A stretch of 64,000 nt of DNA, from the IMG/VR virus record IMGVR_UViG_3300034283_002790, positions 1 to 64,000 of that record; one strand, written 5' to 3'. This document shows positions 54,218 through 63,929 of the stretch, one piece after another. The translations under genes and the position numbers were made by a program. The stretch's first letter is position 1. Every line of letters begins with the position of its first letter. The notes beneath the pieces were generated by a model. It did no database searches. It was given only the letters and a program-made list of their open reading frames with translations, and had not been told where the DNA came from. Source of the DNA: a virus.

Positions 54218-54614
54218 ATACTACTTTTTTTTCAAATTCTAAGACAATGTCTCTTTCATAAAGTTTATCTTTTATTTGTTGTTCTTCCTCGCCAAAGTGA
54301 AAAACTAGTCTTTTTGTTATCGAAAAATCAAGATTATCGTTTTCTTTTTCCCAACCCAATGCTAATACACCATCCATACAATCAACAACAGAAAAAACAT
54401 CAGAATCTTGAACTAAATCAAAGGATATACCCCCCTTATTTAGTACGCCCACTCTAGTAATGTATTCAATGTCAGGTGGATGTGGATATCCATTCGCTGG
54501 TCTAGATTCCCAATTTTCACCCCACACTTCTTTAGTTTCTGAAAATATAAATTCATAAATGTTGTCACCTTTAAAATTAGGACCAAGTCCATTTATGTAT
54601 ATTAAATAATTCAC
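54207..54614 (-). CDS. Hypothetical protein, 135 aa
   Basis: Overlapping start and stop codons in the operon. Confidence 0.7.
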   Translation of the reverse strand: MNYLIYINGLGPNFKGDNIYEFIFSETKEVWGENWESRPANGYPHPPDIEYITRVGVLNKGGISFDLVQDSDVFSVVDCMDGVLALGWEKENDNLDFSITKRLVFHFGEEEQQIKDKLYERDIVLEFEKKVVYEH

Positions 54615-56122
54615 AAAATATTTCCTTTGGGGGTTATTTTAAATTCTCTGTTACTAGTTCTAAAAACTAAATTATTTTTGTTAGTTTTCCCCATGAATGT
54701 TGCGTGTGGGAATTTTTCCATCAATTTAATCGCATTTCTTTCTTGGGACACACTTTCAGATAATTGTTGAATTCTATTTTTTTGTTTATCTGTGTTATCA
54801 AAATATTTGGAAATTATTGAGTCAACTGTAGTTGATTCCATGAATCTATTTTTCTCGAATGTGCGATTCCTTTTTCTAGCCCCATGTTTAATGTGTTGTT
54901 TTTCACCAGTACCTTCACACCAATCACACATTGCATCTGTTTTTTCATCATGACCTGAACCATTACAATGATCACACACATCTACTTCAAAATCACCAAA
55001 TTCATCTAATTCACCCATTTTTTTCATCATCTCACCTTGGTGTTTCATAGACACTGACTTACCAATTGCACTACCCAAATTCATAGTTTCCATCATTTCA
55101 CCACCTGTGGGGGGAGTTGGTATTGGTGGTGTCACCGAACCATCGAGACCTAATTTTGACATGTCATAATCCATATCTTCTTCTGGTACTTTTCTTGAAT
55201 TTTCCGTATCTTCAATTCCTTCTTCACTAGAGAACTCGTCGTCAGAATCTGATTCTTCATCATTACCTTCTAATTTATTTAAGATATCATCAACATCATC
55301 ATCAGATAACTTAGTTAAATCCAAAGAAGATAATACTGAGTTAATAACCCACTTTACATTATCTGTCGTCATTGCTTCTTCATCCTCAGAAGAAAATTGT
55401 CTAATTTTCTGAGTCAATTTACCAACCATTTTTTGAATGGATTTATAAGTAACAACTTCTTCACCCTCGTTTGATCCCATCTCGGAACTATCCGGTTCTG
55501 GTGTTTCAAAATCAAAATCAGTTTCTTCGGTATCAGTTGTTTCTTCCGTACCTATTTCTGATCCTAAATCTGTTCCCATATCTGTTCCCATTTCAGGAGA
55601 TGGTGTTGTGTCCATCGCTGGTTCTGGTGCGGGTGCTGGAGGAGCAGGAACTGGAGGTGGAACTTGTGCTTGTGGTTGGGGTTTTGGTTTAGGAGTTGGT
55701 GCTCCTTGTTCACTCATTTCAGATTTTTTATATTTTAAAAAATATTTGTTTTTTTGACGTTCCTCAATTTCGTTTTCAAAAATGTTTGTACCGACAGTAT
55801 TTTCATTAACCATGTTTAACTCTTTGGCCATGAAATTTAATTTTTTAAGTGCGGTTGAGTAAGAACCAAAGTATTCCCTATTTTTCATTGGGGATATATA
55901 TTCACTATGCGATTCGTTTAATTTTCTTTTAATAACATAACCACCTTTTTCTTTTTCAATTTGGTATGTGTTTCCGTCCGCTAATTCTACAGAATAATTG
56001 ACAGAACTTGATTCATTTACATTTTGTGGAACGTTCTCATTGTATCGTGCAATTTGCATAATACGATTAATTTTTTCCATTCCTTGAAGTTTTTCACTTC
56101 CTACAGGTCTAAATCCTCCCAT
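54611..56122 (-). CDS. Hypothetical acidic, low-complexity protein with a DnaJ-type CxxCxGxG pair, 503 aa
   Basis: CDHCNGSG...CDWCEGTG; Pro-rich and acidic linkers. Confidence 0.7.
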   Translation of the reverse strand: MGGFRPVGSEKLQGMEKINRIMQIARYNENVPQNVNESSSVNYSVELADGNTYQIEKEKGGYVIKRKLNESHSEYISPMKNREYFGSYSTALKKLNFMAKELNMVNENTVGTNIFENEIEERQKNKYFLKYKKSEMSEQGAPTPKPKPQPQAQVPPPVPAPPAPAPEPAMDTTPSPEMGTDMGTDLGSEIGTEETTDTEETDFDFETPEPDSSEMGSNEGEEVVTYKSIQKMVGKLTQKIRQFSSEDEEAMTTDNVKWVINSVLSSLDLTKLSDDDVDDILNKLEGNDEESDSDDEFSSEEGIEDTENSRKVPEEDMDYDMSKLGLDGSVTPPIPTPPTGGEMMETMNLGSAIGKSVSMKHQGEMMKKMGELDEFGDFEVDVCDHCNGSGHDEKTDAMCDWCEGTGEKQHIKHGARKRNRTFEKNRFMESTTVDSIISKYFDNTDKQKNRIQQLSESVSQERNAIKLMEKFPHATFMGKTNKNNLVFRTSNREFKITPKGNIL

Positions 56123-56199: not shown

Positions 56200-56961
56200 T
56201 TATTGTTTCATGGACAATTTTTTATCTATCATTTTAGTTGGGTAATCATAGAGTTTTTCAATGTAACCGTTTCTCCTAAGAACTTTGAAAACTAAATTTT
56301 CTAAACTCATCTCCCCACCTTTTTCAAGACCACAGTTCCTGAACTTTTTTAATTTTTCTTTATATTTTTTAATCAAGTCCTTAATTTCCTCTGGGTCCTC
56401 ATCCTCAATATTATCCAAAACACCATCAATTATAGACATCCATTGTCTTGATTTTTCCTTCAAAAGTTCGAAATCAATTTGGTCAGAACTTTCTTTTTTT
56501 GGAACACTAATCCATTCGTCAAATAATATAGAATAAACCCCACTACTGAACGTTGTTTCTTTTTCGCTCTGAACAAAACATTCAACGTCATAACCAAAAA
56601 ATTTAATATTGTGTTTTTGATTGAAAATAACTTTTTTGAGATCAAAAAATTCCACGTAAAGTTCCTTTTGGTTTTCAGCAAATTGATCATAATCAACAAC
56701 CACATGAAGATCTATATCGGAATATTCGGACCAATTGTAATTTACTAAAGATCCGATAATAATTAAATCAGAAATTACAACGTCAACTCCCAAAAATGAA
56801 ATAAATTGATTTGAAATTTCTAATAATTTTTCTCTTACTTCGGGTCGTATTTTATAATTTTCCGCACTATCTGTTTTAGAACCTTTTTTATCGAGATACC
56901 AAACTTTGGAATTTAGGTCTTTTTTTGGTATAAAACTTTTAAGCAATTCTTTTTCCATCAA
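56200..56961 (-). CDS. Pol-beta superfamily nucleotidyltransferase, 253 aa
   Basis: IIGSLVNYNW..YSDIDLHVV (hG[S]-x-DxD) and a third acidic residue in YDVECFV. Confidence 0.8.
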   Translation of the reverse strand: MMEKELLKSFIPKKDLNSKVWYLDKKGSKTDSAENYKIRPEVREKLLEISNQFISFLGVDVVISDLIIIGSLVNYNWSEYSDIDLHVVVDYDQFAENQKELYVEFFDLKKVIFNQKHNIKFFGYDVECFVQSEKETTFSSGVYSILFDEWISVPKKESSDQIDFELLKEKSRQWMSIIDGVLDNIEDEDPEEIKDLIKKYKEKLKKFRNCGLEKGGEMSLENLVFKVLRRNGYIEKLYDYPTKMIDKKLSMKQ

Positions 56962-56982: not shown

Positions 56983-57228
56983 TTAAGTTAATTTTTTGTA
57001 CTTAAAAGTTTTTGATATTTCCTTATTAAAAAAGTTTCCATGAGATTTTGCACTTCTAAATGAAGTATAAAGTTGGTGCGGTACTTCATCATATTCATAC
57101 CTTATCCCATTCTTAAATTCTACAACTAATTTTTTAGTGATTGTATCATATTCTGTTTTCACTAAATTTGAAGATTCAATTTCATTAATAATCTTCGTAC
57201 CCAAAATAATTTCTTTTAGTATTGCCAT
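56983..57228 (-). CDS. KTSC-domain protein, 81 aa
   Basis: SSNL...YD...LVVEFKNG..YEY..VP...Y..F..A.S.G.FFN. ATG at 57228. Confidence 0.88.
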   Translation of the reverse strand: MAILKEIILGTKIINEIESSNLVKTEYDTITKKLVVEFKNGIRYEYDEVPHQLYTSFRSAKSHGNFFNKEISKTFKYKKLT

Positions 57229-57306
57229 GTTTTTTATTTTAAAAATATGAACTTTAAAAAAAAAATCCACCCTATAGGTAGATTTAATAATTGGGATATA
57301 TATTTT

Positions 57307-57663
57307 TTATTTAAGTAAATTGATTACTTTTTTTTCTTTTTCTTTTTTAAAAGGAAAAAATATTTCTAAAATCCCATCTCGAAGATCTGCTTTAATTTTT
57401 TCCTGATCATATTTTTCCCCAATTGTATATTTTTTTGAAATTGTGGACTTTGAAACCGGGGATCCGGACTCAAAATTTAGTTCCCTTTCCCCCTTAATTA
57501 AAAGATGATTGTCCTTGACCTCAACACTAAGGTTATCTTTATTATATCCAGGAACTTCAATACTAAAATAACTCCCCGACTCCGAATGATGAAGTTCGGG
57601 TGTATTCAAGTTTTTTAAATTTTGACTCATTTGATAAAAGTCATCATAAAATAATTTAAACAT
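57307..57663 (-). CDS. Small heat-shock protein (Hsp20/alpha-crystallin), 118 aa
   Basis: IEVPGYNKDNLSVEV...LLIKGER...IKADLRDGILEI. Confidence 0.9.
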   Translation of the reverse strand: MFKLFYDDFYQMSQNLKNLNTPELHHSESGSYFSIEVPGYNKDNLSVEVKDNHLLIKGERELNFESGSPVSKSTISKKYTIGEKYDQEKIKADLRDGILEIFFPFKKEKEKKVINLLK

Positions 57664-57725
57664 TTTTTTTTATTTTTAGGTTTATTTTGTTATTTTTGTT
57701 CTCGAAAATTGTTCCATTGTGTGGA

Positions 57726-57775
57726 AAGTGTCATATTGACACTTATATTCTTATTTCAGTGACAAATTGACAAAT
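57726..57775. promoter_or_regulatory. Putative operator between divergent hsp20 and clpC
   Basis: Perfect inverted repeat AAGTGTCA-TAT-TGACACTT (57726-44) plus tandem TGACAAAT-TGACAAAT (57760-75). Confidence 0.55.
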
Positions 57776-57795
57776 ATGGACTTTATTAATATTTT
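57767..57795 (+). promoter_or_regulatory. sigma70-type promoter for clpC
   Basis: TTGACA, 17 nt, TATTTT. Confidence 0.5.
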
Positions 57796-57824
57796 AATTT
57801 ATATTTAAAAAAAAACAAAAAATT

Positions 57825-59879
57825 ATGATTGAGTTAGGTGATGAAAACGAGAAAAGAAATAAAAAAAGTGAATCAGGTACACCAGTACTAGATAATTTTA
57901 GTAAAGACCTGTTGAAGTTGGCAGAACAGGGTAAATTGGATCCTGTAATTGGAAGAAAGTCTGAGATTTTACGAATTGCACAAATTCTATCAAGAAGAAA
58001 GAAAAATAATCCAATTATTATCGGTGAACCTGGGTCGGGAAAAACAGCAATAGTTGAGGGTCTCGCGATGTTGATAAAAGAGGGTGAGTGTCCCAAAAAT
58101 CTTTTAGATAAAAGAATTCTTTCCTTGGATATTAATTCATTAGTTGCTGGTACCAAATATCGTGGTCAGTTTGAAGAAAGAATGAAAGTAATTATCGAGG
58201 AACTTAATCAAAATCCTGATATTATAATTTTTATTGATGAGATTCACACCATGGTTGGAGCCGGAAATAGTTCTGGTTCTTTGGATGCCTCCAACATCTT
58301 AAAACCGGCACTCTCAAGAGGTGAAATTCAGTGTATTGGTGCAACAACACTTGACGAATATAGAAAACATTTTGAAAAGGATGGTGCTTTAGACAGGAGA
58401 TTCCAAAAAATTATTGTAAGTCCATCCACTAAAGATGAAACATTTGAAATTTTGAAACAAAGTAAATTAAAATATGAAGATCATCATAAAGTCACATATG
58501 ATGATAATACTTTACGATTATTTGTTGAACTTGCGGATCGTTATATCACTGATCGAGAGTTTCCGGATAAAGCGTTCGATATCTTGGATGAGGTTGGTGC
58601 TAGAATGCAAATAGATATCAAACTTCCTGAGGTTATCGAAAATCTTAAACAAGAGGCATCCGACATCAAAAAACAAAAAATGGATGTCATCAAGAAACAA
58701 AATTACGAACAAGCGGCGGAGTTACGTGATAGAGAAAGACAAGTTTTAGGTTTGTTGGATGAAGAAAAAAAGAAATTCGAACAACAACTTAAAAATAGTA
58801 AAAGACCTATCGGAGAGGAATTAGTCTATGAAGTAGTCTCCAATATGACTAAAATTCCGGTTTCTAAAATTAACCTGGATGAGAAAAAATCTTTAGTTGA
58901 TCTTGATAAAAATTTAAATGGAAAAGTTATAGGTCAGGAAGATGCAGTAATTAAGATTACCAAATCCATCAGAAGAAATAGAATTGGTATAAAAGATCCA
59001 AATAAACCAATTGGTTCTTTTATATTTTTAGGATCCACCGGTGTAGGTAAGACATTTTTAGCAAAACAACTTGCCAAAGAAATATTTGGAAGTGAGGAAA
59101 ATCTAATAAGAGTTGATATGAGTGAATATCAAGAAAAACATACTATTTCAAAGTTGATAGGATCACCACCAGGATATGTAGGTCATGACGAAGGCGGACA
59201 GTTAACAGAACAAGTTAAAAATAAACCTTATTCAGTAATTTTGTTTGACGAAATAGAAAAGGCACATAAAGACATTTTCTCAACTTTGTTACAAATATTA
59301 GATGACGGACATGTAACCGATTCTTTGGGTAGGAAAATTAATTTCAAAAACACTATGATTATTATGACATCCAATATCGGTGTTAAAAAACTTCAAGATT
59401 TCGGAACGGGTGTTGGATTCAAAAGTTCGAATAGTGAGGCAGTGCAAGAAGAACATAGAAGAGATGTTCTTAAAAAAGAATTAAGTAAGTTCTTTGCCCC
59501 TGAATTTTTGAATAGAATTGATGACGTTGTTATTTTTAATTCGCTTAGAAAAGAACATATTGATGTTATTACTAAATTGGAGATCGATAAACTATTAGAA
59601 AGAGTGACTTCTAAAAATTACTTTTTCTCTTACGATCAAAATGTAATTGATTTAATATCTGAAGTGGGGTTTGATGAAACATTTGGTGCCAGACCCATCA
59701 AACGAGCAATTCAAGATAAAATTGAAGATTTGATTTCAGAAAAAATCCTCACGGATGAAATTGTGGAAAATCAAGAATATGTTTTAGTTGTGGAGGGTGA
59801 AAAAGAAAATAGAAAAATTTCAGTCTTAACTAAAGAGATTCCTAAAACAACCAAAAAGAGGACATCAAAAATTAAATAA
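57825..59879 (+). CDS. clpC: ClpC-type AAA+ unfoldase lacking the N-terminal domain, 684 aa
   Basis: D1 GEPGSGKT and FIDEIH; UVR-type middle domain NYEQAAELRD; D2 GSTGVGKT and LFDEIEKAH; ClpP-docking loop GVGF. Confidence 0.9.
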   Translation: MIELGDENEKRNKKSESGTPVLDNFSKDLLKLAEQGKLDPVIGRKSEILRIAQILSRRKKNNPIIIGEPGSGKTAIVEGLAMLIKEGECPKNLLDKRILSLDINSLVAGTKYRGQFEERMKVIIEELNQNPDIIIFIDEIHTMVGAGNSSGSLDASNILKPALSRGEIQCIGATTLDEYRKHFEKDGALDRRFQKIIVSPSTKDETFEILKQSKLKYEDHHKVTYDDNTLRLFVELADRYITDREFPDKAFDILDEVGARMQIDIKLPEVIENLKQEASDIKKQKMDVIKKQNYEQAAELRDRERQVLGLLDEEKKKFEQQLKNSKRPIGEELVYEVVSNMTKIPVSKINLDEKKSLVDLDKNLNGKVIGQEDAVIKITKSIRRNRIGIKDPNKPIGSFIFLGSTGVGKTFLAKQLAKEIFGSEENLIRVDMSEYQEKHTISKLIGSPPGYVGHDEGGQLTEQVKNKPYSVILFDEIEKAHKDIFSTLLQILDDGHVTDSLGRKINFKNTMIIMTSNIGVKKLQDFGTGVGFKSSNSEAVQEEHRRDVLKKELSKFFAPEFLNRIDDVVIFNSLRKEHIDVITKLEIDKLLERVTSKNYFFSYDQNVIDLISEVGFDETFGARPIKRAIQDKIEDLISEKILTDEIVENQEYVLVVEGEKENRKISVLTKEIPKTTKKRTSKIK

Positions 59880-59881
59880 AA

Positions 59882-60622
59882 CTATACGTCTTTTTGGGTC
59901 CAGGTTATTTTATTTTTTGTTTCTTTAGCCATTTGATTCATGTGATTTTTAAATGAATTGTAGAAACTTGTAGGTATTGTTAAACAAATCTTTTTCTTTT
60001 TAACTTTACCTTTTGGTACATTTCTAAATAAATCTCGTCTATCTACATTTGTATTATCCCCAGCGACACCTTGTATTTGGTAATTTGTGGTTTTTTCTCC
60101 AGTTATTGCTGCAGAAACGTATTGTTCTTTTACTGCTTCAGGACTATTCATTACTGTTGCTTTACCGACTTTAGTTGTCCCTGCGGTAATTACTACTCTA
60201 GGGTCTGTAATGTTTTGTTTGATATAAGTAATTAAATTATCCCGTCTTCTTGCCGCTAATGCATTATTATCATATCCAGATGTTGTCCCAACGGCTGATG
60301 CACCACCACCAACAGTAACATAAACTTTTCCTTTAGTCTCCTTTAAAAGATCCTTAATTGTTTGAATTATATCTTTGATTTTTGGATCGTTAGGATTTAT
60401 TGTATCAACACCATTAGCAAATGTAGTTGAACCATTCGAAACTATGTTGTAAGATACATTATATCCATTTGGATATCTTGCCTTTAATCTTTCGATACTA
60501 CTGAGTGCAGGACCACCGAGTGCCTCAGAAATAACAATATTACGTGTTGTACTAGATCCGTGAAGATTTAAAATTCTAAACTTTTCGTCTTCGGTAATAA
60601 ACGTTTTTTGACTCATGGACAT
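59882..60622 (-). CDS. Protein with an OmpA-like C-terminal domain, 246 aa
   Basis: F.NG...; GGASAVG...YDNNALAARRRDNLITYI resembles the N-x2-LS-x2-RA-x2-V-x2-YL motif. N-terminal ITEDEKFRILNLH. Confidence 0.5.
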   Translation of the reverse strand: MSMSQKTFITEDEKFRILNLHGSSTTRNIVISEALGGPALSSIERLKARYPNGYNVSYNIVSNGSTTFANGVDTINPNDPKIKDIIQTIKDLLKETKGKVYVTVGGGASAVGTTSGYDNNALAARRRDNLITYIKQNITDPRVVITAGTTKVGKATVMNSPEAVKEQYVSAAITGEKTTNYQIQGVAGDNTNVDRRDLFRNVPKGKVKKKKICLTIPTSFYNSFKNHMNQMAKETKNKITWTQKDV

Positions 60623-60653
60623 TTTTATAATAAATATGTCCTTAAAAAAAAAA

Positions 60654-61439
60654 TTAATGTTTAGAACATCCTAACTCCTCAATTATTTTTTTTCCGATAG
60701 AAATTCCATTATAAGTGTCTTCTAACACAACGTATTCTTGTCTTGTGTGATACCGGTAGTATCCGATAGAAAGATTGAAACAGGATAATCCAAAGTTTTG
60801 ATTTAAAGGGAATATGTCAGTGTAAGGATGATATTGATATAGTGGATCACTAGGGAAATTTTCACAAATTAATCTATTCCCAACTTCAAAAAACTTACTT
60901 TCTCGATTAAACATTTTCTTTCCCATCAGGTATTCTGATATCATATTGTTTTCCGGTGCGTCAAATTGAATGCAGTACCCAACGTTTGAAAAAAATTCTG
61001 GGTCTGCCGCTTTAGAACCGTGACACCCGGTTTCTTCAGAAACAAAGAATGCCGATTTAACATTATCGAGTTCCAATAAAGAAACCATGCAGGCAAATAC
61101 ACCACATTTATTATCACCACCAATACCTGTGGGATCACCCTTGTCATTAAGAGCCCTCCAGGATTTTTTCAGTTCACCCTGGGCGTTGGGTAACATTTCC
61201 TCAATAATATTAATTGGTTCAATGTTATGTACTGTATCGGTGTGTGCGATCACACAAGGAAAAAAATCAACGTCCTGGGAGGTTTGCTTTGTTGCATAGA
61301 TGTTTTTCATCTTATCAACATAAAAAGGTATTTTATTTTCCTCTAACCAATCACAAATAAACTTAACAAGTAAATCTTCTTGATAAGTTTTTGAAGGTAC
61401 TGAAAGTACACTTTTTAAAAGTTCTAAATTATTCATCAT
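60654..61439 (-). CDS. Zn-dependent peptidase, M20/M28 clan MH-like, 261 aa
   Basis: IAHTDTV, GGDNKCG, SEETG, IQFDA, and YH metal-ligand motifs. Confidence 0.82.
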   Translation of the reverse strand: MMNNLELLKSVLSVPSKTYQEDLLVKFICDWLEENKIPFYVDKMKNIYATKQTSQDVDFFPCVIAHTDTVHNIEPINIIEEMLPNAQGELKKSWRALNDKGDPTGIGGDNKCGVFACMVSLLELDNVKSAFFVSEETGCHGSKAADPEFFSNVGYCIQFDAPENNMISEYLMGKKMFNRESKFFEVGNRLICENFPSDPLYQYHPYTDIFPLNQNFGLSCFNLSIGYYRYHTRQEYVVLEDTYNGISIGKKIIEELGCSKH

Positions 61440-61443
61440 GGTA

Positions 61444-61475
61444 CAAATTTACAACGTTTTATTTTATCTACCAAA
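61444..61475 (-). promoter_or_regulatory. Bacteroidota-type promoter for the peptidase
   Basis: Minus-strand TTTG, 20 nt, TAAATTTG. Confidence 0.55.
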
Positions 61476-61479
61476 AAAT

Positions 61480-61508
61480 TTGACTCATTAAAAAAGTTTT
61501 TTTATATT
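61480..61508 (+). promoter_or_regulatory. sigma70-type promoter for the tmRNA
   Basis: TTGACT (61480-85), 17 nt, TATATT (61503-08). Confidence 0.65.
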
Positions 61509-61553
61509 TATGTCTGTAAATAGTTCATTGAAAACACACCGTACAAAATATAT

Positions 61554-61972
61554 GGGCCTATATTGGATTTGACGGGCGTTGGTTGGATTAAAGGAGCATG
61601 TCGGGTCTGAATTAAACTCGTTAAAAACTGATTCGAACAACAACTGGCAATGTGCTAAACAAAATGGAAACTCTTGGTTTACTAAGAGGTTCTGAAGTTA
61701 CTGTAGCCTAATAGGTTTACGGAAACGGAGGGTCGATCAGACAGATACCTAGTAACAGAAGTCGTAGATGAGTTGGTTTTCACTCTAAAAGAAAACAACG
61801 GTCTCGTTCAGAGGGCTACCGTAACAAAAGTGAACTCGACACAGTTTTTGGTAACAATGTCAAAATAGGAACCAAATATTTTGGAAGATATGAAAAATCT
61901 TAACCTAAACATGTAGTTGTCTTTTTGACAAAACGAGCCGGACGAGGGAGTCGGAGCCCTCTAGGTCCACCA
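61554..61972 (+). ncRNA. ssrA: tmRNA, 419 nt; predicted tag (A)GNVLNKMETLGLLRGSEVTVA
   Basis: Acceptor stem GGGCCUA/UAGGUCC with a G3:U wobble and ACCA end. 5' GGAUUUGACGGG; GCAUG/CAUGU helix; pk1-like pairings. Tag ORF 61646-61711 ends TAA TAG. Confidence 0.92.
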
Positions 61973-61976
61973 ATTG

Positions 61977-62007
61977 ATCCCATCATTTAATTATGGTGGG
62001 ATTTTTT
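61977..62007 (+). terminator. Intrinsic terminator after the tmRNA
   Basis: ATCCCATCAT-TTAATT-ATGGTGGGAT followed by TTTTT. Confidence 0.8.
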
Positions 62008-62215
62008 ATTTATCCTTCATGTTAAAATTAAGAGTATGGTTGATTGTAACTGTTATTTGATTAGTATCGAAATGACGTATTTTACCATCTTCAAAAGAAG
62101 AACATACCCATATGGTATTTCTATGTATCCCATAATCTATTATAAATAAAACCTGGGCTTCTCCAAAAGGTGTGTTCACTGTTATAACTTGTTGTACTTC
62201 ATGAATTGAGGTCAT
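62006..62215 (-). CDS. Hypothetical protein, 69 aa
   Basis: ATG at 62215 follows TATTTAT (minus strand, 62220-26). Confidence 0.6.
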   Translation of the reverse strand: MTSIHEVQQVITVNTPFGEAQVLFIIDYGIHRNTIWVCSSFEDGKIRHFDTNQITVTINHTLNFNMKDK

Positions 62216-62271
62216 ATTGATAAATATGAATATTATAAAATTATCACAGGTTAAATATTTATGATTCACAT

Positions 62272-62940
62272 ATGAAAATATATTTCGATCATATTAATGG
62301 TTTTGGTAAAATAAGTGATTTCGAGGTAATAGTTAACTGTGCCTATGGAATTCAAGAAAAAGAAGATAACCCATCCGAGTTGATGAATCAAGGGTGGATT
62401 CCCTGGAAAGATAGATGGTATAATGAAAGAAGTACAAGAATAAATCTTACAAACTATAAACCAAGTAAAACGACAAAAAGACTGTCAAATAAAATTACTA
62501 CCAGAAAAGGAGACATAAAAAAATATATAGAGATTTACAAGGAAATTCATCAAAAATACTCCACTCATAAATCATTTCAGAGAAATATAAGTCTTGATAC
62601 ATTTTTAGATTGTGAGATAATAGAATATTGGAAAGATAATCTTATTGCTCTGTCTATTTATAAAATGATCGGAAAGGATATGATTGCATATCAATTTATT
62701 TGGGACTATGAAGATCCAAAATTGTCTATGGGAAATGTTGCTCAGATGTTTGAGTGTGAACAAGCAAGGTTAAATCAATGTGACTATGTTTACCTTATGG
62801 GTGGATATGAAAAATGTTGTGAATACAAATCGGAATTTTCTGGATTTGAGTTTTGGACTGGTCTTGAATGGTCTTCCGATGTTGACTTATATAAAAATCT
62901 TATAAGTCGAGATCAAAAAGTTATAATACAAAATATATAA
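62272..62940 (+). CDS. ATE1/Bpt-like aminoacyl-tRNA--protein transferase, 222 aa
   Basis: ATE_N-like L..GW...RINLTNYKPSKTTKR. ATE_C-like WDYEDPKLSMG...ECEQAR...YVYLMGGYEKCCEYK (compare YDP...SLG...EI..AR...Y.YLG...C.KM.YK). Confidence 0.75.
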   Translation: MKIYFDHINGFGKISDFEVIVNCAYGIQEKEDNPSELMNQGWIPWKDRWYNERSTRINLTNYKPSKTTKRLSNKITTRKGDIKKYIEIYKEIHQKYSTHKSFQRNISLDTFLDCEIIEYWKDNLIALSIYKMIGKDMIAYQFIWDYEDPKLSMGNVAQMFECEQARLNQCDYVYLMGGYEKCCEYKSEFSGFEFWTGLEWSSDVDLYKNLISRDQKVIIQNI

Positions 62941-62961
62941 AAAAAGGGACAGACTGTCCCT
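62941..62961. terminator. Probable bidirectional terminator between the transferase gene and the large ncRNA
   Basis: AAAAAGGGACA-GAC-TGTCCCT. Confidence 0.6.
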
Positions 62962-62984: not shown

Positions 62985-63923
62985 AAAAGAAACGCTGAGA
63001 TTACACGTTTTTGTGAGAACCTTTAGAGTCATTATTGTTTCTACTCTTATCCACTTCCTTTTGGAAAGTATTTCTCAGTGACGGTCTTTTAGGTTTACCA
63101 CTCCTTAAGGTTTGAATTACTCTCATCCTAATCTACTCTTTTCGAGGATGCCTCCCCAACTCGTCCTTGCGGGACTAAAGGTTTTTCGGATAATTACACT
63201 CAGACTTGGGATCTTTGTGTGCAATGAACGGCTCATTACTATGTAGTCACCTTTCATCCAAACCTGACGGACACTTTTCCTTATTTTTTATTAATTATTG
63301 GAATAATCAACTTCCATAAGTTTTGTGTTGTGGATTGTGAAAGTAGTGGTCCGCCAACCAAGCCAACCCATCTTTTGAACGAGTCGATACTCAACTACTC
63401 TCTGAAATGTCCCCATTTCCATATTTTTAGACTACTTCGAAACAAATCTTTTGGTAAAGATTCATTAAGGTTCATAACAGCACCACCTGTACATAAACAT
63501 ACCTTTCGGTTTTAAGTATCCTATAATATTGGAATCCGTAATTATAAAGTTGGATAACTCTATTTCTTACATAATTCCTACGGGTTATTCCTATCGGTGT
63601 TCCCACCTCAACTAGACGACCCACATCGCCCAATCGTCAAACCACTTTCCTTACAGCGTTGCCCTCAGTACTAAAGGTTTAACGGTATCCCGCTTGCATA
63701 CTCGACCTCGAATGTCCGAAGACAAACAAGACGCAAACCAGTTACACTTCTGATTCACTTTATCCCACTTTCGTGGTTTATTTATTGACCATATGCGGCC
63801 AAATATCTTTATTACTCAAAGGAGAGAATTACATCTCTATTATCGGTCAAATAATCTGACCGGACTTTTTTGTAAAAGGATAATTCAATTTTTCAAAGAA
63901 CTTTTCGGACGTTTCCGAACTGT
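62985..63923 (-). ncRNA. Large structured ncRNA, about 930 nt, probably GOLLD-like
   Basis: No credible ORF; GC-richer than flanking DNA. Tetraloop hairpins (CCAC-GAAA-GUGG, UGUC-UUCG-GACA, ACC-GAAA-GGU, GUCC-C-GCAA-GGAC) and long-range pairs (CAUCCU/AGGAUG, CUGAGA/UCUCAG). Has its own promoter and terminator. The family call rests on recall of GOLLD 3'-domain sequences and needs a covariance-model search. Confidence 0.7.
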
Positions 63924-63929
63924 TTGATA

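Follow-up and report, generated by a model that had tools for sequence, protein, structure and literature searches.

Do phage genes for tagging, unfolding and hydrolysing proteins that lie next to one another constitute a single proteolysis system, or do they belong to separate units? The question is raised by a 64,000-nucleotide stretch of viral DNA (positions 1 to 64,000 of the IMG/VR virus record IMGVR_UViG_3300034283_002790; hereafter the window), which forms the first 64 kb of a linear record of 187,384 bp that is about 64% complete. A preliminary description, made from the letters alone, had reported an Hsp20, a ClpP-docking ClpC, an M20/M28 peptidase, a transfer-messenger RNA (tmRNA) and an ATE/Bpt-like aminoacyl transferase here, and had read them as one dual-degron system with two tag writers and a reader. 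Pfam, Rfam, PHROG and Foldseek place all five at the coordinates originally given; the description had overlooked two open reading frames (ORFs; orf246 and orf87), a GOLLD RNA and a recent insertion. Our reading, to which we assign a probability of roughly 0.55, is that the 54.6-63.4 kb stretch consists of two unrelated units side by side, namely a block conserved throughout a phage clade and a mobile cassette that carries the transferase.

The block comprises a zinc-finger protein, a nucleotidyltransferase (NTase)-like protein, a KTSC-domain protein, an optional Hsp20, a ClpC that lacks its N-terminal (N) domain, a peptidase and the tmRNA, together with GOLLD in one subclade. Its core, and the GOLLD gene that converges on the tmRNA gene both here and in 26 relatives, are laid out as follows:

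57825-59879, plus strand: ClpC-type double AAA+ ATPase, 684 residues (Pfam AAA, AAA_lid_9, AAA_2, ClpB_D2-small)
60654-61439, minus strand: lidless MH-clan (M20/M42-like) di-zinc exopeptidase catalytic domain, 261 residues (PHROG 4191 'peptidase', E 5.5e-28)
61480-61508, plus strand: promoter-like TTGACT-17-TATATT upstream of the tmRNA (consensus match only, 10/12)
61554-61972, plus strand: tmRNA with encoded CCA (RF00023, 74 bits against a cut-off of 47, model positions 1-374)
61646-61708 (with stops to 61714), plus strand: tmRNA tag frame of 21 codons, GNVLNKMETLGLLRGSEVTVA, then TAA TAG (from the tmRNA alignment)
61976-62003, plus strand: terminator hairpin and T-run directly 3' of the tmRNA (terminator scan)
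62961-62945, minus strand: GOLLD terminator hairpin (terminator scan)
62992-63402, minus strand: conserved 3' domain of GOLLD RNA (RF02032, 317.5 bits against a cut-off of 150, model positions 1-416)
63958-63930, minus strand: GOLLD promoter-like site (promoter scan)

The full GOLLD transcript probably starts near 63925 and ends near 62945. We compared this arrangement with the best 80 ClpC-bearing IMG/VR loci (ClpC 67-85% identical; contigs of up to 321 kb), hereafter the relatives, in which elements were counted by tblastn, blastn and nhmmer profiles and the tmRNA was located with an nhmmer profile. All 48 loci that have at least 6 kb of sequence downstream of ClpC preserve the order ClpC, peptidase, tmRNA, and GOLLD stands beside the tmRNA in 26 of these 48. 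Over the full set, the tmRNA was found in 66 of 80 relatives and the peptidase in 78. The block order survives down to 67% ClpC identity despite turnover of cargo in two slots and inversion of the peptidase gene in 13 loci. Three of the five genes originally described as a cluster thus remain linked; Hsp20 recurs in 18 of the 80 relatives, and the transferase in none.

The transferase instead belongs to an insertion in the spacer between the tmRNA and GOLLD:

62006-62269, minus strand: orf87, the partner of the ATE family, here inverted and upstream of ATE (partner hidden Markov model (HMM), residues 21-85, E 1.2e-10)
62008-62938, no strand assigned: inserted cassette of 931 bp (orf87 and ATE), between the tmRNA and GOLLD terminators
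62272-62940, plus strand: Cys-less ATE1/Bpt-like aminoacyl-tRNA-protein transferase, 222 residues (PF04377, E 4.2e-9, 37.5 bits against a cut-off of 25)

Homology to the relatives with the closest tmRNAs, L036 and L016, ends at 62007 and restarts at 62939, and L036 has 46 bp in place of the insertion. Neither ATE nor orf87 was found in any of the 80 relatives, and a scan of five further relative records for ATE_C, three of them complete genomes, returned none (0/5). The spacer is a cargo hot spot: in other relatives it is either 140-150 bp long or holds other cargo, namely zinc-ribbon ORFs, a SET-domain gene, a rhomboid gene or SmpB. The ATE family itself extends over 121 protein clusters and 445 viral stretches and occurs in other kinds of phage, one of which has a capsid gene of crAss type; its neighbours there are small genes of early or replication function. 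Within an 87-locus survey of its surroundings (1.13 Mb in total), 84 loci have no Clp-type gene near ATE and 86 have no tmRNA. Only one of them, L094, also has ClpC, peptidase, tmRNA and GOLLD; it belongs to the same clade and carries the same insert at the same site. What accompanies ATE is an ORF of about 65 residues that begins at the ATE stop codon in 82 of the 85 loci with room for it. The HMM built on this partner matches orf87, which identifies orf87 as the family's constant partner; its true start is likely M19 at 62215, giving 69 residues. The ATE cassette is thus an independent mobile moron of two genes, and its independent occurrence, which the preliminary description had itself named as grounds for refutation, largely refutes the proposed dual-degron system.

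Two sets of ATE neighbours were observed elsewhere. In a distant ATE lineage on phage contigs of 25-40 kb, a gene for an ATPase with Clp_N and an AAA D1 module only lies two genes upstream of ATE (L004:7288-8667(+) and L003:963-2357(+)); it follows a DNA polymerase III alpha gene and is the sole Clp-type gene near ATE outside this clade. In L005:3322-3591 and L008:7133-7845, the small genes around the cassette include members of anti-defence families (Tad2-like and Acb2/Tad1-like), a neighbourhood that hints at an early or counter-defence setting. PHROGs holds no family for ATE, orf246 or orf87.

The phage protein resembles ATE1 and Bpt, which combine ATE_N and ATE_C, in its GNAT-type ATE_C core, its F-I-W-D and S-L-G motifs and a glutamate, Glu161, that corresponds to Glu277 of Kluyveromyces lactis ATE1 (klAte1). 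The family profile matches the ATE1 proteins of yeast (7e-8) and K. lactis (5e-6), and the AlphaFold2 (AF2) model (mean predicted local distance difference test (pLDDT) score 87) has human ATE1 as its top Foldseek match (8tzv, 1.5e-9), followed by MprF, L/F-transferase and FemX. By contrast with ATE1 and Bpt, it is only 222 residues long and is virus-borne with its partner of about 65 residues. The ATE_N domain was not matched in Pfam, and across 26 family members no cysteine is conserved within the N-terminal 100 residues; in klAte1 the four-cysteine metal or Fe-S site of ATE_N is formed by C23, C26, C95 and C96 (PMC9351520). The amino-acid pocket consists of S255, S273, E277 and Y289 in klAte1 and of A, A, Q and L in Bpt (PMC9351520). 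HMM alignment places A139, A157, E161 (invariant) and V173 at these positions in the phage protein, a mixture of ATE1 and Bpt with Bpt-like Ala/Ala/Val in place of Ser/Ser/Tyr, and the donor amino acid therefore cannot be read from the sequence. ATE1 and Bpt transfer an amino acid from aminoacyl-tRNA to an N-terminal Asp or Glu, and the phage protein may do likewise. Should it write N-degrons, they would be read by ClpS of the host together with the host's ClpA or ClpC.

ClpC is the unfoldase of the block. It aligns with residues 149-811 of Staphylococcus aureus ClpC (6em8) at E 1e-209 and, because the alignment begins only at residue 149, it lacks the N domain; a Pfam scan likewise gave no match to PF02861 (Clp_N), and the domain (about 145 residues) is missing from all 80 phage homologues. 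What remains comprises two AAA+ modules and a short middle domain, with Walker A motifs GEPGSGKT and GSTGVGKT, Walker B motifs FIDEIH and LFDEIE (read from the translation), and pore loops. The ClpP-docking loop, G-V-G-F at residues 528-531, places VGF opposite AGF of S. aureus ClpC, and a [VIM]GF tripeptide is present in 80 of 80 relative ClpCs, with or without a phage ClpP of their own. Two AAA+ rings, a short coiled-coil middle domain and an [A/V]GF loop are also features of the ClpCs of Firmicutes and Actinobacteria (S. aureus 6em8, Bacillus subtilis 3j3s, Mycobacterium tuberculosis ClpC1 8a8u), from which the phage protein differs in the missing N domain. Its closest cellular homologues (55-58% identical) are from Chitinophagales, including Sediminibacterium, Ferruginibacter and Hanamia, and they too retain that domain; one of these cellular homologues, L186, is an ORF of 871 residues. 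The N domain of ClpA and ClpC is the docking site for ClpS and for adaptors (MecA, McsB-phosphoarginine). Without the ClpS-docking domain, the phage ClpC cannot read N-degrons by the known route.

The partners of this ClpC vary across the clade. The preliminary description had found no clpP or clpS in the window, which is borne out, and the whole 187-kb record also lacks clpP, clpS and smpB. ClpP is encoded by two of three complete relatives and by one partial relative (G002, G003 and G004), 22-32 kb from ClpC. There is no ClpX beside it in these ClpP-carrying relatives, and ClpC is the sole Clp-type ATPase of their genomes. Together with the invariant docking tripeptide, this argues that ClpC is a protease component and not a disaggregase alone.

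The tmRNA has several features of a trans-translation gene. The acceptor stem pairs 5' GGGCCUA with UAGGUCC-ACCA, which yields a G3:U70 pair that is retained in all 16 tmRNAs that we aligned. In each of these 16, the tag frame is exactly 21 codons long, and G1, K6, G11, L12 and A21 are invariant; synonymous pairwise codon differences number 379. A tag that is so long, clade-specific and constrained at the amino-acid level suggests that something reads it. A second tag type, for example GNTFAKMAALGLIAEEAVVKA, is found on the less closely related tmRNAs of the alignment; tags of this GNTFAK type start GNTFAKMAA or GNTFAKLAA and continue with 12 further codons, LGL...VVxA. Host-type tags are shorter: four of five Chitinophagales genomes (L256-L260) encode tags of 9 codons, GNNRFALAA, GNTQYAMAA, GNTSYAMAA and GNYNFALAA, which begin with GN like the phage tags and end A-L/M-A-A. 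For L257, ARAGORN called an oddly placed tag of 19 residues, which we discounted as probably an error of the program. By its similarity, the GNTFAK-type tag looks like a host-type tag that has lost its stop codon. In a blastn comparison (E 1e-2) the phage tmRNA did not match the five Chitinophagales tmRNA loci, so descent from a host gene would rest on tag similarity.

The T-arm (61940-61972) carries an 8-nucleotide loop, AGUCGGAG, in place of the usual 7-nucleotide UUCGAnU. This loop is common to the window and to four near-identical relatives, L094, L016, L036 and L044; other relatives have TTCGA-type loops. ARAGORN found no tmRNA in the window or in the whole 187-kb record and fails on all five of the 8-nucleotide-loop tmRNAs because of that loop; the Rfam model and the nhmmer profile do detect the gene. 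SmpB (PF01668, 2e-46) adjoins the tmRNA in six relatives, on either strand (L045:15345-15782(-), L021:14819-15268(-), L087:15621-16034(+), and also L046, L058 and L061), and in five of these six it sits inside the tmRNA-GOLLD spacer; the complete genome G003 has it elsewhere. For the tmRNA in the window, SmpB is presumed to be the host protein.

Much of this recalls bacterial trans-translation by SsrA tmRNA, SmpB and ClpXP or ClpAP: the G3:U70 pair, the CCA end, a resume codon and a short tag frame that ends in Ala and stops, along with SmpB in some relatives, a ClpP-docking Hsp100 and, again in some relatives, ClpP in the same genome. It differs in being phage-encoded, in a tag of 21 codons ending V-T-V-A, in the 8-nucleotide T-loop and in having ClpC, not ClpX, as the neighbouring ATPase; this phage lacks its own SmpB and ClpP, and reading of the tag is here a prediction. 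Phage-borne parts of such a pathway have been published: tmRNA with SmpB in huge phages (Al-Shayeb et al. 2020, PMC7162821), tmRNA with ClpP and ClpX in phage G (PMC12484599), and the genomic site and cage structure of GOLLD (PMC12286853). The tmRNAs of huge phages and of phage G were called by ARAGORN and interpreted as serving ribosome rescue (PMC7162821, PMC12484599). The present clade differs from both in that an N-less ClpC and an exopeptidase accompany the tmRNA throughout, in that the tag has twice the usual length, and in that one subclade is silent to ARAGORN; the ATPase of phage G is ClpX and that of this clade ClpC. In the literature that we searched, no paper describes a fixed ClpC-peptidase-tmRNA-GOLLD arrangement, a 21-codon tag or a phage ATE/Bpt family.

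The peptidase that separates ClpC from the tmRNA had no Pfam match, and its NCBIfam scores were far under the cut-offs. Its AF2 model (pLDDT 91.6) has Peptidase T as the best Foldseek match (1fno, E 5.4e-12, template modelling (TM) score 0.78), followed by M42 TET aminopeptidases and the catalytic domain of DapE. The metal ligands and catalytic Glu (H66, D68, D109, E135, E136, D160 and H231) are invariant among 23 homologues. The phage enzyme has in common with Peptidase T (M20B) and the M42 TET aminopeptidases the fold, the H-x-D, D, E-E, D and H ligands and the catalytic Glu, and differs from them in lacking the lid or dimerisation domain (261 against about 410 residues) and in belonging to a virus-dominated family. 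In 13 relatives (L036:13724-14752(+), L016:2153-3175(+) and 11 more) the gene at this position lies on the opposite strand and encodes a second form of about 340 residues, against 261-281, at 40-48% identity. The degree of identity differs between tmRNA, ClpC and peptidase from relative to relative, a sign of mosaic ancestry.

GOLLD, which faces the tmRNA from the other side of the spacer, resembles known members of its family (RF02032; PMC12286853) in its full 3'-domain match, in being phage-borne and lake-derived, in lying near tRNA genes and in its great abundance in RNA libraries. It is distinguished by the tmRNA gene that converges on it, sometimes with SmpB or other cargo wedged between, a neighbourhood that we did not find described in the literature searched. 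Arrays of up to 12 tRNA genes lie 4-10 kb beyond GOLLD in many relatives (L014, L016, L024, L025, L028 and others); in the present record ARAGORN calls only tRNA-Arg(tct) at 70136-70209 and tRNA-Asp at 156874-156947.

Both RNAs are present in environmental RNA. At least 89% of the window's sampled words occur in each of 14 lake-water DNA runs, and four lake metatranscriptome runs gave zero-mismatch contigs over the tmRNA, GOLLD and coding genes. Those over the tmRNA span 61562-61972, nearly end to end, at depths of 7-53; those over GOLLD span 63077-63783, including its 5' region, at depths of 120-850, far above any coding gene here. As this evidence consists of contigs, strand and transcript ends are unproven. 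The RNA-library contigs gave no cover over 62114-62824, in the ATE gene; contigs cannot show absence. The clade consists of lake-water jumbo phages whose hosts are probably Chitinophagales. ClpS is encoded in five of five candidate host genomes, and a canonical Bpt, unrelated to the phage type, in one of five.

How might the block act? The phage tmRNA would be charged with Ala by virtue of its G3:U70 pair and would pair with SmpB of the host or, in some relatives, of the phage itself. It would free ribosomes that stall during infection and append a clade-specific tag of 22 residues. Through the VGF loop, ClpC would dock on ClpP of the host, or of the phage where one is encoded, and would unfold and degrade proteins, possibly including the tagged products; the exopeptidase would then trim the peptides to amino acids. 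The ATE cassette has inserted between the terminators of tmRNA and GOLLD and would act independently of the block. The gene identities, the synteny, the conserved tag and docking loop and the presence of the RNAs are observed; a degron function of the tag, its recognition by ClpC and a later action of the peptidase on the products are our inference. Of the two tag writers and the reader originally proposed, the tmRNA beside a ClpP-docking unfoldase thus stands, and the N-degron half, with no ClpS and a ClpC without N domain, is not supported; the C-degron half (tmRNA, then ClpC with ClpP, then peptidase) is plausible.

Several observations weigh against a block that acts in this way. Gene adjacency is weak evidence of functional coupling, because all 80 loci represent one clade with an inherited gene order. 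The non-canonical 8-nucleotide T-loop leaves charging of the tmRNA and binding of SmpB unproven, and neither ClpP nor SmpB is encoded by this phage or by its closest complete relative, which implies host partners. Coding genes reach a depth of at most 5 in the RNA libraries and may there represent DNA carry-over. Elsewhere the components are not joined: in phage G the tmRNA lies between gp550 and gp556, far by gene number from ClpP and ClpX (gp257 and gp258) (PMC12484599), and the huge phages LR745206 and LR756502 (635-642 kb), with a 58%-identical ClpC, have no tmRNA, peptidase or Hsp20 within 15 kb of it. That the tag is a degron and that ClpC binds it stand, moreover, as inference.

Other readings can be set beside ours. 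In one, ATE writes N-degrons, the tmRNA writes C-degrons, and phage ClpC with a ClpP reads both, as first proposed. The genes are indeed adjacent here and in L094, the distant L003/L004 lineage pairs ATE with a Clp_N-containing ATPase, and ClpS in the candidate hosts means that a host N-degron reader may exist; set against the absence of ATE from the relatives, its position in an insert between terminators, its survey contexts, its fixed small partner, the loss from ClpC of the domain on which ClpS and adaptors dock and the lack of a phage ClpS, we consider this very improbable. In another, a stable-RNA island (tmRNA, GOLLD and tRNAs) merely abuts host-derived chaperone genes in an inherited order, with no relation of tag to reader: the tmRNA does no more than recycle ribosomes, ClpC unfolds or degrades phage or host proteins in general, and the peptidase serves some other purpose. 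Synteny drawn from a single clade, tRNA arrays a few kb beyond GOLLD in many relatives, the known position of GOLLD near tRNA islands (PMC12286853) and the separation of tmRNA from Clp genes in other phages that have both all fit this explanation. It accounts less well for an order that outlasts turnover in the orf246 slot and the spacer as well as 13 inverted peptidases, down to 67% ClpC identity, and the long, clade-specific, constrained tag suggests that something reads it; we regard it as possible, if somewhat doubtful.

The tag might also be a mask and not a degron, such that the 12 codons past a host-like GN..A(M/L)AA hide rescued proteins from host ClpXP, or the phage tmRNA might compete with that of the host, leaving ClpC to a separate role, such as disaggregation alongside Hsp20 or a part in assembling virions. 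The second tag type, which runs on through LGL...VVxA where Chitinophagales tags such as GNTQYAMAA and GNNRFALAA stop, would fit such a mask, and Hsp20 is divergent from ClpC in 18 relatives; the invariant ClpP-docking tripeptide, and the relatives in which ClpC is the sole partner ATPase of a phage ClpP, speak against it, and we hold it to be quite improbable. An elaboration of the block that we entertain only tentatively, and judge unlikely, is a private branch of trans-translation: the tmRNA would descend from a host-type gene whose tag of 9 codons was extended by 12, which would bury the host degron and create a new C-terminal signal read by the N-less ClpC with phage or host ClpP, the lidless exopeptidase would finish the products, and the GOLLD cage would take part in the same rescue or RNA-handling process. 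We return from these to two units side by side, the conserved block and the mobile ATE cassette.

The remaining genes of the stretch are the upstream members of the block and one variable ORF:

54611-56122, minus strand: 503-residue protein that opens the block, with a DnaJ-type CxxCxGxG zinc finger and an acidic, low-complexity central region (PF00684, weak, E 7.8e-4)
56200-56961, minus strand: NTase-like protein, weakly assigned to the Pol-beta/poly(A) polymerase superfamily (PHROG 36119, E 9.8e-38; Pfam NTase only 1e-3)
56983-57270, minus strand: KTSC-domain protein, just upstream of ClpC (PF13619, E 4.9e-17)
57307-57663, minus strand: Hsp20/alpha-crystallin small heat-shock protein, divergent from ClpC (PF00011, E 1.8e-14, 54 bits against a cut-off of 20.8)
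59882-60622, minus strand: orf246, 246 residues, with a weak OmpA/TssL-like C-terminal motif (TIGR03350 at 1.3e-4)

Upstream of ClpC, the zinc-finger protein is found in 74 of 80 relatives (tblastn), the NTase-like gene in 75 and the KTSC gene in 77; KTSC is otherwise found at the C terminus of some lysyl-tRNA synthetases. Where Hsp20 is present in relatives its position is constant, at 32-42% identity (tblastn). Since orf246, which has no Pfam match, lies between ClpC and the peptidase in only two of 80 relatives, that position is a second variable slot outside the conserved block. PADLOC returned no match for ATE, its partner, the NTase, the KTSC protein or orf246.

Recognizing ATE as an independent cassette prevents the spread of a false 'dual-degron system' and directs attention to the real unit, the transferase and its 65-residue partner. 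The block, for its part, puts GOLLD, an RNA cage whose structure has been solved, next to genes of ribosome rescue. Phage tmRNAs and Clp proteases are each known, and this clade offers a clean and abundant natural test case for their role in infection: a distinctive, conserved tag of 21 codons, a neighbouring ClpC that is free of adaptors and has a ClpP loop, variable presence of SmpB and ClpP, and RNA evidence from lakes. Whether the phage re-addresses rescued proteins to its own protease is a question that a few recombinant proteins would suffice to test.

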